Assembly (NCBI RefSeq): GCF_046105845.1
Contig: NZ_CP151004.1
DNA from: Escherichia coli
GTDB taxonomy: Bacteria; Pseudomonadota; Gammaproteobacteria; Enterobacterales; Enterobacteriaceae
Length of the DNA: 64,000 bases
Direction: 5' to 3' (one strand)
The notes below the pieces were generated by a model, which saw only the letters and a list, made by a program, of their open reading frames with translations, did no database searches and was not told where the DNA came from. The translations under genes and the position numbers were made by a program. Shown piece by piece: positions 19,642-26,357 of this stretch (positions are counted from its first letter, which is position 1; each line of letters begins with the position of its first letter).

Positions 19642-19734
19642 TGGCCTCTTATAAAAAGAGCAATAGCGGTCATGTTTTCAAATAAAAACACTTCGTAAGC
19701 TTCTCGCCCTTTTATACTCGTTCAGGAGTGTGTT

Positions 19735-20884
19735 ATGGCTGCTTCCACCTTTTTTTATTCCTTCCGTTAATGTCATTGGTGCAGATTCTTTTAAAGATGC
19801 GATGAATATGATGGCGGAATATGGTTTTCGCCGTACATTAATTGTGACTGATAGTGTGCTAACAAAATTAGGTATGGAGGGTGATGTACAAAAAGCATTA
19901 CAGGAACGTGATATTTTTAGCGTAATTTATGATGGTACGCATCCTAACCCGACCACAAAAAACGTCGCAGAAGCTCTTAAAATGCTGACGGAAAATAATT
20001 GCGATAGCGTGATTTCTTTAGGTGGTGGTTCCCCGCACGACTGCGCAAAAGGCATTGCGCTGGTGGCAGTTAACGGCGGCGATATTCGCGATTACGAAGG
20101 CGTGGATCGCACGGCGAAACCGCAACTACCGATGATTGCCATCAACACCACGGCGGGTACTGCATCAGAAATGACCCGTTTTTGCATTATCACCGACGAA
20201 GCACGCCACATCAAAATGGCGATTGTGGATAAACACGTCACCCCGCTGCTTTCTGTGAACGATTCGACTCTGATGATGGGTATGCCGAAGCCGTTAACCG
20301 CCGCCACCGGGTTGGACGCGCTGACTCACGCCATCGAAGCGTATATCTCTATTGCGGCAACGCCGATCACTGACGCCTGCGCGCTGAAAGCAATGACCAT
20401 GATCGCGGAAAACTTACCGATAGCGGTTGAAGATGGTCACAACGGCAAAGCGCGTGAAGCAATGTCTTACGCTCAGTTCCTCGCGGGCATGGCGTTTAAT
20501 AATGCTTCACTGGGATACGTACACGCGATGGCGTATCAGTTGGGTGGCTTCTATGACCTGCCGCACGGCGTTTGTAATGCCATTCTGCTGCCGCACGTTC
20601 AGTTATATAACAGCAAAGTTGCCGCCGCACGCTTTGACTGCGCGGCGGCTATGGGCGTGAATGTCACAGGCAAAAACGACGCGGAAGATGCGCAAGCCTG
20701 CATTAAAGCGATTCGCGAACTGGCGAAGACAGTGAATATCCCGGCAGGCCTGCGCGATCTGAATGTGAAAGAAGAAGATTTTGCGGTGCTGACCACCAAT
20801 GCCCTGAAAGATGCGTGTGGATTCACTAACCTTATTCAGGCAACCCATGAAGAAATTGTGGCGATATATCGCGCCGCAATGTAG
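19735..20884 (+). pseudogene. iron-containing alcohol dehydrogenase (YiaY/FucO family) paralog with an apparent +1 frameshift after codon 7
   Basis: ATG at 19735 with RBS aggag reads [15 protein letters not shown]; removing one T from the 7-T run restores [18 protein letters not shown]...; rest of ORF 19730..20884 is a full-length Fe-ADH (GGGSPHD motif, His-rich metal site). Confidence 0.6.
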
Positions 20885-21244
20885 TTCTCTTCCCGCAACG
20901 GCTGGCGCGTTGTCAGCCGTTTTGCTGAAGATATTACTGTATTTATGATATGGATATCAGACTATTAAAATATATTCAGACCTGTTTTGGAATATCTCAA
21001 TAATATTCGTTTCATTTGCGGTCGGGGGAAGAATTACCTACTATTCGCTGAGCGTTAAGGCCTGCTAATTGATCAACTTATGATCAATCAATATGGAAAA
21101 GTTATTGTTAAATAAATAACATATCGCACGCTGAATACGTCATGAATTTTTTTCAAGAAATATGTTATTAATAGTAAAGATGATCAAATTTATAAGCTTT
21201 TTTTATCTGTAAGCTGCGCCCCTTTTTCATATGGAGATAAAAAC

Positions 21245-22396
21245 ATGGCAGCTTCAACCTTTTTCATTCCCTCTGTGAATGTAATTGGCGCGGATTCATT
21301 AAAAGATGCAATGAATATGATGGCGGATTATGGTCTGCGTCGTACATTAATTGTGACAGGCCGTGTAATGGGCAAGAGCAGCGTGTTGGTGCAACTCCAA
21401 CAAGCCTTGCAGGAACGCAATATCGTAAGCGTTGTTTATAATGGCTCCCAACCGAACCCAACGACGAAAAACGTGGCTGCGGGTTTAAAAATATTGCAGG
21501 AAAATAATTGTGATAGCGTTATCTCCTTAGGCGGCGGTTCTCCACATGACTGTGCAAAAGGGATTGCGCTGGTGGCAACCAACGGCGGCGATATCCGGGA
21601 TTACGAGGGCGTAGACCGCTCGGCGAAACCGCAATTGCCAATGATTGCCATCAACACCACGGCGGGTACGGCGTCTGAAATGACCCGTTTCTGCATCATT
21701 ACCGATGAAACGCGCCACATCAAAATGGCAATTGTGGATAAACACGTCACCCCAATTCTTTCTGTTAATGATTCTACGTTAATGATGGGGATGCCGGAGT
21801 CACTGACCGCCGCCACTGGGATGGACGCATTAACCCATGCCATCGAAGCATATGTCTCTATTGCGGCAACGCCGATCACTGATGCTTGTGCATTGAAAGC
21901 GGTCACCATGATTGCTGAAAACCTGCCGCTGGCAGTAGCAGACGGAAGCAATGCCCAGGCGCGTGAAGCTATGGCTTACGCCCAGTTCCTCGCGGGTATG
22001 GCGTTCAACAACGCATCGCTGGGTTACGTTCATGCAATGGCGCACCAGTTAGGTGGTTTTTACAACCTGCCTCACGGGGTGTGTAATGCTGTTTTGCTGC
22101 CGCATGTTCAGGAGTTCAACAGCAAAGTTGCCGCTGCACGCCTGCGTGACTGCGCGGCGGCAATGGGTGTGAATGTAATGACAATGAACGAAGCTGAAGG
22201 TGCGCAAGCTTGCATTAATGCCATTCGCGAGCTGTCGAAGAAAGTGAATATCCCGGCAGGCCTGCATGAACTGGATGTTAAAGAAGAAGATATTCCGGTA
22301 CTGGCCACCAATGCCCTGAAAGACGCATGTGGGTTTACAAACCCAATTCAGGCAACCCACGAAGAAATTATGGCGATTTATCGCGCCGCAATGTAA
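21245..22396 (+). CDS. yiaY: iron-containing alcohol dehydrogenase (YiaY family), intact, 383 aa
   Basis: [26 protein letters not shown]...; Fe-ADH motifs; length matches what I recall for K-12 YiaY; which of the two copies is the true ortholog is uncertain. Confidence 0.8.
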
Positions 22397-22410
22397 TTAC
22401 CCTTCCTCCA

Positions 22411-22440
22411 GCGGCTGGCGTTTTGTCAGCCGTTTTTTTA
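22411..22440 (+). terminator. terminator hairpin after the second alcohol dehydrogenase gene
   Basis: cggctggcgttttgtcagccg followed by a T run; a related hairpin follows the first copy at about 20893-20915. Confidence 0.5.
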
Positions 22441-22521
22441 ACTATCTCAAAATTCGCGTTTTTTGAGATAGTTTCTCTTTCCTGCTATACACTATCTCAA
22501 TATTACGCTTTTTTGAGATAG
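22441..22521. promoter_or_regulatory. two copies of a 31-bp palindromic element upstream of the fic gene (candidate operators)
   Basis: actatctcaaaattcgcgttttttgagatag (22441-22471) and actatctcaatattacgcttttttgagatag (22491-22521); each is an inverted repeat tatctcaa...ttgagata; 50-bp spacing; ends 5 bp before the fic start. Confidence 0.6.
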
Positions 22522-22525
22522 GCAA

Positions 22526-23821
22526 ATGGTTATCAAATCACCTCCCACGCTGATTCCTTTATCACACTTATCGGGTGAGGAACTCCAGGCCCACCTGCGC
22601 TTTAACCGGGTTACCGATGAAAAAGGACGTTATCTACCTTTTGATGAGTTGCAGTACCGCATCAAAAAAGGAGAAAACGTCGAAGTGGCGTGGACGCTTA
22701 CCCGTCTGGCGCGCAACGCGGCGATCCAACGAATCAATTATTGCAATGAAGCGGGTGAACAGGCCGGATACAACATTACCCCGGTGATTGCAGAAGCGTG
22801 CGAGCTTGTCGACAAACGTGCTACCGCGCTGGCGCTGAAAGATCAGACTGAACGGTTACGCGGGGCCGGAGCCGAGTTAAGCCAGTTACGCCTGGAAGAG
22901 CCGATCACCAGCTCCCAGCTGGAAGGTGCGAATACTACAACGCTGGTGGCGAGAAAAATGCTGGAAACAGGGCGGTCGCCACGCACTGAAGACGAGCATA
23001 TGATTGCAGGAAATGCCCGACTGATGGCGGAAATTCCGCACTTACTCGCAGAACCGCTGACACCTGCGCTTATTCGCCAGTTACATGCCATTGGTATGGG
23101 TGGAATCAATGACGCGAAATATCGTCCGGGAGAATTTCGTGAAACAGATGATGTTGTGATCGCCGACTATGACGGCAATATTGTGCACCAACCGCCCGCT
23201 GCGGCATTGTTGCCGGAACGGCTGGAAAAAGTTTGCCAGTGGTTAAACAGCCATGAAGGGTATATTCACCCGTTAATCCGTGCCTGCATTCTGCATTTTA
23301 TGCTGGCCCATGAACATCCATTTCGCGATGGCAACGGGCGCACCAGTCGGGCACTGTTTTACTGGTATATGCTGAAATCGGGCTACGATGTTTTTAAATA
23401 TATTTCCATCAGCCGTTTTCTTCATGCTGCGCCAGTCAAATATGCTGCCAGCTACCAGTACACTGAATCAGACGGTATGGATCTGACTTATTTCCTTGAG
23501 TATCAGGCGGGTGTCATTAAACGTGCTTTGCAAAACTGGCAGCAGCATATTGATGAAATTATGCAACGAAGTGCAAAACTCGATAGTGTGCTGTTTAGCT
23601 CTGGTGTGCTTAAACGCCTGAATCCGCGCCAGGTAACGCTCCTGAATGTGATGCTCGCCAATCCGGGGAAAGAGTACACAGTTGCTGAAATTAGCGCGAG
23701 CCTGGGCGTCTCTGATAATACGGCTCGAGCTGATTTACGGACAATTGTTAAAGAAGGGTTTGCGCAAGAGAAAAGAATTAATAACCAGCAAGCAGTGTAC
23801 GTCGCACACTACCCGCTGTAG
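22526..23821 (+). CDS. Fic-domain protein (putative AMP-transferase), 431 aa, with N-terminal inhibitory-type motif and C-terminal HTH-like region
   Basis: Canonical Fic motif [12 protein letters not shown] at residues 264-275; S-x-x-x-E-G match (SSQLEG) at residues 129-134; C-terminal about 70 aa resembles a winged helix-turn-helix. Confidence 0.85.
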
Positions 23822-25744: not shown

Positions 25745-25930
25745 GTGAAAAGTGCAGACGTGATCGCCATCCTGAAGCAGCATGGCTGGGAACATATTCG
25801 AACCCGTGGCAGTCATCATCAGTTCCGCCACCCTGTTCATCCGGGTCTGGTGACGGTTCCGCACCCTAAAAAAGATATTAAGCCCGGTACGCTGGCGCAA
25901 ATTGGGCGTCAGGCTGGTTTAACATTTTAA
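25745..25930 (+). CDS. hicA: HicA-family toxin
   Basis: 61-aa basic protein (GTG start) ...LKQHGWEHIRTRGSHHQFRHP...; size and G-S-H-H motif fit HicA; immediately followed by hicB. Confidence 0.75.
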   Translation: MKSADVIAILKQHGWEHIRTRGSHHQFRHPVHPGLVTVPHPKKDIKPGTLAQIGRQAGLTF

Positions 25931-25946: not shown

Positions 25947-26357
25947 ATGTTTTATCCCGCCTATATCCACAGTGATCCTGACGGCAGCGCCAGCGGTTTT
26001 TTCCCTGATGTTCCAGGCTGTTATTTTGCTGGTGATACGCTGGACAACGCTTTCCAGGATGCGCGAAGTGCACTGGTCGCGCACTTCGAAACCTTATGCG
26101 AGATGAATGAAGAGTTGCCGCTTCCAGGCTCTGTGGAAACACATCTGGTCCAGCGTGCGCAGGACTTTATTGGCGGGCAATGGTTGCTGGTGGATATCAA
26201 TATGAATCAATTCGAAGGTCGGGCTGAACGTATCAATATTACGATGCCAAAAAGATTACTGAACAAGATTGATACCTACGTGCGCAATAACCCAGACTAT
26301 GCCAACAGAAGTGCGTTTCTGGCGGAAGCTGCCCGGCGTGTATTGCCGGGCGTTTAA
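25947..26357 (+). CDS. hicB: HicB-family antitoxin with C-terminal ribbon-helix-helix-like region
   Basis: 136 aa; N-terminal HicB-like fold; C-terminal RINITMPKRLLNKIDTYV...RSAFLAEAARR resembles an RHH DNA-binding domain; 16-bp gap after hicA. Confidence 0.75.
   Translation: MFYPAYIHSDPDGSASGFFPDVPGCYFAGDTLDNAFQDARSALVAHFETLCEMNEELPLPGSVETHLVQRAQDFIGGQWLLVDINMNQFEGRAERINITMPKRLLNKIDTYVRNNPDYANRSAFLAEAARRVLPGV

Follow-up and report, generated by a model that had tools for sequence, protein, structure and literature searches.

Two palindromes that lie directly before fic in Escherichia coli are best understood as a pair of operators by means of which Fic keeps its own promoter repressed, a reading to which we assign a probability of roughly 0.8. 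They were analysed in a stretch of 64,000 nucleotides of E. coli DNA (hereafter the window), for which an initial annotation had suggested that the palindromes are operators for a dimeric helix-turn-helix (HTH) protein and that Fic regulates its own gene through them. This suggestion is supported by the linkage of the sites to fic alone, by the conservation of their half-sites across distant bacteria, by the way in which they interlock with the predicted promoter, by the winged helix of Fic and by the precedent of the related proteins CccR and SoFic. Taken together, gene, promoter and operators amount to a mobile, self-contained unit of ~1.4 kb that passes from one genome or plasmid to another.

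The fic locus and its palindromes

Within the window, selB, two yiaY-like iron alcohol dehydrogenase genes, fic (22526..23821) and aldB follow one another in this order, all on the plus strand. The yiaY-like genes (19730-20884 and 21245-22396) stand in tandem and are 81-85% identical at the DNA level; similar terminators, 86% identical, stand behind both of them (20889-20923 and 22402-36), and the locus holds a single yiaY in the E. coli genomes examined, versus two in the window. Downstream of aldB there is a hicA/hicB-like toxin-antitoxin pair (25745-25930 and 25947-26357), which is annotated at the equal position in E. coli E-1246 and absent from the annotation of O157. Neither an antitoxin gene after fic nor T6SS effector genes as neighbours were found at this locus in the window.

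The gap between the second yiaY copy and fic measures 129 bp and begins with the yiaY intrinsic terminator (22410..22440, plus strand), recognized by a terminator scan as a stem of 11 pairs, six of them GC, at 22410-22434 and followed by TTTTTTT. Among Escherichia haplotypes this stem displays compensatory changes, and the terminator bounds the fic control region on its upstream side. Both palindromes lie downstream of its T-run, as had been noted at the outset.

The window sequence also bears out the basic description of the pair as two palindromes of about 31 bp placed 50 bp apart: palindrome 1, ACTATCTCAAAATTCGCGTTTTTTGAGATAG, occupies 22441-22471, and palindrome 2, ACTATCTCAATATTACGCTTTTTTGAGATAG, occupies 22491-22521, each being 30-31 bp long with a start-to-start distance of 50 bp. 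Some details of the initial annotation had to be adjusted. Palindrome 2 does lie close before the fic ATG, but the gap consists of 4 nt (GCAA) and not of 5 bp, because the fic ORF starts at 22526. The predicted distal operator, O1, is a perfect 13+8+13 palindrome once its flanks are included (22440..22473, unstranded; AACTATCTCAAAA-TTCGCGTT-TTTTGAGATAGTT), with half-sites TATCTCAA at 22443-22450 and TTGAGATA at 22463-22470 separated by 20 bp centre to centre. The predicted proximal operator, O2 (22491..22521, unstranded; ACTATCTCAATA-TTACGCTT-TTTTGAGATAG), carries the same half-sites at 22493-22500 and 22513-22520; thus, internal symmetry holds in full for O1, whereas the left arm of O2, CTATCTCAATA, has one mismatch. 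The centre had been given as nine nucleotides long and is in fact 8 nt, since a pattern with N9 gives no match and one with N8 finds both sites. The N8 between the 11-mers corresponds to N12 between the CTCAA and TTGAG cores. Written as CTATCTCAAWA-N8-TTTTGAGATAG, the pattern matches only the two palindromes in the 64 kb, with 0.00 matches expected (100 shuffles).

Solitary sequences of a similar kind are also present. The 9-mer CTATCTCAA occurs seven times in the window versus 0.3 expected from shuffles, including three more exact copies at 7932 (minus), 28050 (minus) and 31389 (plus) that have no partner half-site at the right spacing. A half-site-like stretch, GGAATATCTCAATAATATT, is found at 20981-21012, ~70 bp past the terminator of the first yiaY copy, without a TTGAG partner 12 nt on. 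To our knowledge, none of the motifs of IHF or other E. coli factors fits TATCTCAA.

The palindromes interlock with the predicted fic promoter

Read from the sequence, the right arm of O1 contains a predicted -35 element, TTGAGA (22463..22468, plus strand), which matches TTGACA at five of six positions, and a predicted extended -10 element, TGcTATACA (22483..22491, plus strand), follows 17 nt past it, with the TG at 22483-22484 and the hexamer at 22486-22491. This placement leads to a predicted transcription start on the CTCAA of O2, at ~22497-22500. O2 starts at the final base of the -10 hexamer and spans both the predicted start and a predicted ribosome-binding stretch, GAGA (22515-22518), which lies in its right arm, 7 nt before the ATG. 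A stricter promoter scan of the window called no promoter at fic, because the -10 hexamer (TATACA) ends in A instead of the usual final T; promoter and start are accordingly spoken of here as predicted.

The overlap of the inverted repeats with the predicted -35/-10 region of fic recurs in an equal layout in distant loci. In 17 of 25 such loci, T-A stands at offset -9/-8 from the proximal CTCAA and forms a TAnnnT hexamer, with TTGAGA, TTGAAA or TTGACA 16-19 nt upstream of it. In most of the loci with two sites, TTGAGA or TTGAAA stands 17-19 nt away from the -10-like hexamer. In two-site loci the -35 element coincides with the right arm of the distal palindrome, and a -35-like hexamer is likewise present at that place in loci with a single site. 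It is nevertheless important to stress that the 49-52 bp spacing between paired sites may simply reflect promoter geometry and is thus no evidence for cooperative binding.

Distribution and variation within Escherichia

Of 5426 complete E. coli genomes, 1563 (29%) have the arrangement yiaY-fic-aldB with both palindromes, at 89-93% identity; O157:H7 and ST131 are among them. When the 91-bp region was searched in all E. coli genomes, matches were obtained at this locus only, at a median of one place per matching genome and always between yiaY and aldB. Among 11 distinct Escherichia haplotypes the palindrome arms are invariant except for the outermost base of the last arm, while the centres vary at five of eight and two of eight positions, respectively, and the spacer between the sites varies except for CTGCTATA, which corresponds to the predicted -10 region. 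The arms are even more strongly constrained than the nearby true terminator. This combination of invariant arms with variable centres and spacer suggests purifying selection on the arms.

Genomes without fic are also informative. About 500 E. coli genomes keep O1 and the start of O2, joined to the last bases of fic, and have GAGAGAG instead of GAGATAG in O1 (loci L009 and L010, 2462-2661). In the yiaY-aldB spacer of E. coli K-12 MG1655 (locus L008, 2013-2176, minus strand), only AACTATCTC is left, joined to TGTAA, so that the breakpoint falls inside the left arm of O1. The fic-less alleles have their breakpoints at microhomologies of TATC, and each of the five examined shows a change at a conserved T in the O1 right arm. 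These alleles are best read as deletion scars of the fic module, and the operator reading accounts for the short palindromic remnants that such deletions leave, as in K-12.

Conservation in distant homologues

Fic homologues of this type, with ~430-460 aa, are widespread, and in many of their loci an inverted-repeat scan reveals an nTCTCAAAA...TTTTGAGAn palindrome that immediately precedes the start of fic. One genome per species was scanned, which gave 80 loci, 74 of them usable, ranging from Escherichia albertii (95% identity) to Pseudomonas, Pseudoalteromonas, Marinomonas, Leptolyngbya, Sulfurovum and others at identities down to 36%. With a site defined as CTCAA-N10-12-TTGAG with at most one mismatch, located no more than 130 bp upstream of fic, 45 of the 74 loci carry one, as compared with 32 of 2955 control windows (~1%) from the same loci (Fisher p = 4e-59); the remaining 29 loci have none at this threshold. 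The 74 loci include representatives of Photorhabdus as well as of Escherichia, Pseudomonas, Pseudoalteromonas, a cyanobacterium and Sulfurovum. Paired sites with a distance of 49-52 bp occur in 18 loci. In Alcanivorax quisquiliarum there are three operator-like sites, 124, 74 and 24 nt before the fic start, that is, in exact 50-bp steps. The proximal CTCAA generally lies 22-32 nt before the fic start in the distant homologues, and in a few loci up to ~50 nt.

At positions outside the search pattern, 100 half-sites show on the outer side T (71%), a purine (99%) and T (89%), and W W on the inner side. The resulting half-site consensus is TRTCTCAAWW, and the two window palindromes read TRTCTCAA-N12-TTGAGAYA. 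Conservation that extends beyond the search pattern is what base-specific contacts by a protein predict. When the flanking ORFs of the loci were compared all-against-all, no gene besides fic proved common to them, and hence no shared antitoxin, separate regulator, recombinase or transposase.

Plasmid-borne copies differ in their sites. A copy on a Klebsiella IncFIB plasmid (39% identity) is preceded by TTAACTCAA-N12-TTGAGTTAA, with 7 nt between the end of the site and the ATG; the site of an Aeromonas plasmid copy is degenerate, and none is visible before a Vibrio plasmid copy. Phage records contained no full-length homologue, and literature searches with the motif strings and the O157 locus tags returned nothing relevant.

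When contigs from metagenomes were scanned for exact matches to TATCTCAA-N12-TTGAGATA, at least 120 loci were obtained, and a Fic ORF follows the site in 16 of the 120 matches listed. These 16 fic-linked loci hold 26 sites, all with W-rich inner flanks (100%) and one within a long open frame, whereas W-rich flanks are seen in 30% of the other 105 sites among the matches listed, 37% of which lie inside long open frames. As the collection is very large, a 16-base pattern is expected to yield mostly chance matches. One human gut metagenome contig (L101) has two good sites 49 bp apart (2835-2911), directly before a 140-aa fosA-like gene and with no fic gene present; it is probably another deletion scar, or otherwise a second target of such a Fic protein.

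A search for further copies, as first proposed, thus returns two in the 64-kb window, one locus per matching E. coli genome and fic-linked sites in distant loci. The opposite case, of a common dispersed repeat unrelated to fic, does not apply, given that E. coli matches occur only between yiaY and aldB.

The Fic protein and its winged helix

The 431-aa product of fic matches the Pfam family Fic with E = 4.6e-20. Its catalytic motif, HPFRDGNGR (residues 264-272), fits HPFx[D/E]GN[G/K]R, and the inhibitory motif typical of class II, S129-x3-E133-G134 (here S129-S-Q-L-E133-G134), is situated N-terminal to the Fic core, with all six columns invariant in an alignment of 22 sequences (alignment A2). 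Residues 96-427 also match PDLC03963, the PADLOC protein model for the SoFic anti-phage defence system (profile positions 30-351 of 361; E = 3.1e-44).

The putative HTH that the initial annotation had seen in Fic is recovered as a C-terminal winged helix (23618..23818, plus strand), which shows a weak Pfam HTH_DeoR match and is modelled with confidence by AlphaFold2 (mean pLDDT 89.6). It comprises helices at residues 367-378, 386-393 and 397-409 and beta strands at 413-417 and 423-427, which form a hairpin (413-427). The recognition helix (residues 397-409, 23714-23752 on the plus strand) bears the motif S-D-N-T-A-R, whose S-x-N-T-A core is kept across clades. Enterics have VSDNTAR at this place; CSYNTA is the form seen in pseudomonads, marine bacteria and the cyanobacterium. 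Variants of the helix go along with variants of the site. Half-sites of the type TAACTCAA, spaced by N10, belong to a clade whose helices read I-x-E-N-T-A-R and whose N-termini are shorter, and several Pseudomonas copies with altered helices (CSYKTA, CAYTTA, CSHSEA, CSHREA) have no site, the numbers in this last case being small.

Foldseek searches of the PDB with the model returned full-length matches, all at 18-19% identity, to CbFic2 (8cil), SoFic (3zcn/3eqx), CccR (7xux), Dde_2494 (4rgl) and a Mycobacterium marinum FIC protein (7cb8). CbFic2 is the top match, with the lowest E-value, and SoFic gives the best superposition (TM 0.60-0.71).

Alternative explanations

The palindromes might also act as RNA hairpins, and structured RNA elements had been offered from the beginning as the other possibility: O2, in the 5' leader, would hide the ribosome-binding site or stabilise the mRNA, and O1 would fold in read-through transcripts. 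When transcribed whole, the palindromes do fold (-14.5 and -10.5 kcal/mol; z = -6.9 and -5.0), as any palindrome would, and the GAGA stretch lies within the right arm of O2. Moreover, imperfect arm pairs on the sense strand are more often G:U-compatible (29) than A:C (15) at arm positions 2-10, an excess that may reflect some constraint at the RNA level; at the most variable arm position, however, A:C (9) outnumbers G:U (6), and the half-site is conserved across phyla as a sequence and not through pairing alone. The position of the promoter speaks in the same sense, since O1 overlaps the predicted -35 element and the predicted start, inside the left arm of O2, removes most of that arm from the transcript; RNA beginning at 22498 has no significant structure (z = +0.59). 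Rfam contains no matching family: a permissive search of 22200-22800 returned only STnc310, which reaches 18.3 bits (gathering score 40; E = 0.87) and lies on the opposite strand, over the terminator. An RNA role is thus disfavoured, and we consider it unlikely. Even less credit can be given to the notion that O1 is a mere back-up terminator for yiaY and O2 a duplicate without regulatory role. The terminator scan does flag O1, which lies directly past the yiaY terminator and offers a 13-bp stem followed by TCTCTTTCCT, but only three of the 13 pairs are GC, the T-rich tail is not conserved and is absent in many homologous loci, and O2 lacks a T-run altogether. In other genomes the sites precede fic whatever the upstream gene may be, and the stronger constraint on the arms than on the true terminator is likewise at odds with this notion, which appears very improbable.

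Another question is whether the sites, if they are operators, serve some other transcription factor, with its gene at another place in the host genome. A palindrome by itself does not name its binder, and sites do exist without fic, both in the ~500 E. coli genomes that keep O1 and before the fosA-like gene of the gut contig. Such a factor, however, would need conservation all the way from enterobacteria to cyanobacteria and Campylobacterota, and would also have to accompany plasmids, while no further gene is common to the loci and the operator variants track the Fic clades; the fic-less sites are in turn best explained by the scars described above, with their TATC breakpoints and the altered T in five of five O1 right arms. 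We regard a foreign regulator as distinctly unlikely. Finally, the presence or absence of the fic module at one E. coli chromosomal site, with the K-12 breakpoint in the left arm of O1, might recall a dispersed repeat (REP, ERIC or MITE) or the recombination ends of a mobile element. A repeat of this kind is hard to reconcile with only two copies in 64 kb and with a single place per matching E. coli genome, and the metagenome sites without fic, with W-rich flanks in a minority and a frequent position in open frames, resemble chance matches. Mobile-element ends or attC-like sites were rejected, because the loci share no recombinase or transposase and because deletions at TATC microhomologies explain the fic-less alleles. 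This last group of explanations is the least probable of all.

A proposed model of negative autoregulation

Autoregulation by Fic, the reading preferred here, can be put into a simple model. A Fic dimer would sit on each palindrome, with one winged helix per TRTCTCAA half-site, the half-sites being ~20 bp (~68 Å) apart and roughly on one face of the DNA. On O1 the dimer would cover the -35 element, represented by TTGAGA in the right arm, and on O2 it would extend from just past the -10 element, over the start, to the ribosome-binding site. In view of these overlaps with promoter parts, occupancy of either operator should block RNA polymerase. The expected outcome would be a negative autoregulation that keeps a potentially toxic AMP-transferase at a low and steady level.

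Comparison with known systems

Control of a Fic-type toxin at its own promoter has a familiar counterpart in the operators of type II toxin-antitoxin systems, such as phd-doc of phage P1, in which a Fic/Doc toxin is held in check by repression at palindromes that overlap the promoter of the operon itself. In the phd-doc type, a separate antitoxin binds the DNA, whereas in the present case toxin and DNA-binding domain are parts of one protein, and no antitoxin gene is present.

The closest functional precedent is CccR of Yersinia pseudotuberculosis (YPK_0951; 7xux): this Fic protein, likewise of class II and with an HTH at its C-terminus, represses its own promoter and must dimerize to do so (PMC9755527). 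Its operator, AGATAATCAT-N26-ATGATAATCT, is located near the -35 and -10 elements and was defined by lacZ fusions, EMSA, DNase footprinting and ITC (PMC9755527). The window Fic resembles CccR in being of class II, in its N-terminal inhibitory helix, in its C-terminal HTH and in the full-length match of the folds; it differs in sequence (~18-19% identity) and in size, CccR having 380 aa versus 431 aa here, with ~70 extra N-terminal residues. The operators diverge as well: that of CccR is one pair of 10-bp repeats with 26 bp between them, while fic has two palindromes of the form TRTCTCAA-N12-TTGAGAYA, 50 bp apart, and neither O1 nor O2 matches the CccR operator in sequence or spacing. In addition, CccR is a T6SS effector encoded beside T6SS effector genes, unlike the window fic. 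The estimated half-site separation of ~68 Å compares with 70.2 Å reported for apo CccR.

For SoFic of Shewanella oneidensis (SO_4266; 3eqx, 3zcn), which shares its domain order with the window Fic, it has been reported that the dimeric but not the monomeric protein binds specifically to a stretch of 100 bp that directly precedes its own start, with no operator motif being defined (bioRxiv 10.64898/2026.07.09.737422). The promoter fragments F1 and F2 listed in Table S2 of that preprint contain ATGTCGAT / ATCGACAT inverted repeats, for instance ACATGTCGATTGAATCGACAT in F1; by our own reading these ATGTCGAT-type repeats, on which the preprint does not remark, are candidate SoFic half-sites, and they are unlike TRTCTCAA. 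SoFic has ~372 aa, and the N-terminal ~70 residues of the window Fic are absent from both SoFic and EcSofic. The SoFic homologue of E. coli H397 is further distinguished by a 47-aa antitoxin encoded downstream, for which there is no equivalent after fic here.

CbFic2 of Coxiella burnetii (8cil) is likewise a Fic enzyme with a winged helix, although its role is not promoter control: DNA binding by the winged helix drives dimer formation and switches the enzyme from AMPylation to deAMPylation (PMC10628234). This binding is largely non-specific, and the switch acts on histone H3 (PMC10628234). By analogy, and as a doubtful proposal, the operator pair may keep a SoFic-like toxin harmless, in a deAMPylating or auto-inhibited form, for as long as its dimer is bound there; if this contact were lost upon phage attack or damage to the DNA, the gene would be derepressed and active enzyme set free. 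If true, this would make Fic a single-protein switch, toxin and sensor at once, whose half-site has a second function in each operator, that of the -35 element in O1 and that of the ribosome-binding site in O2; it would extend the DNA-dependent AMPylase/deAMPylase switch of CbFic2 to a sequence-specific site and would bear on the activation step of SoFic in defence.

There are thousands of Fic enzymes that carry a fused winged helix, anti-phage toxins among them. A footprinted operator is known only for CccR, and SoFic binding has been mapped only to a 100-bp fragment. The locus described here gives a readable consensus (TRTCTCAA, the CTCAA and TTGAG cores being 12 nt apart) and a conserved promoter plan with two operators for a large clade, to which the fic gene found in 29% of complete E. 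coli genomes belongs, and the consensus permits searches for more targets of these Fic proteins. The kind of system is thus already known from CccR and SoFic, and what is new with respect to both is the operator sequence, the layout of two palindromes interlocked with the predicted promoter and the conservation of this arrangement across phyla.
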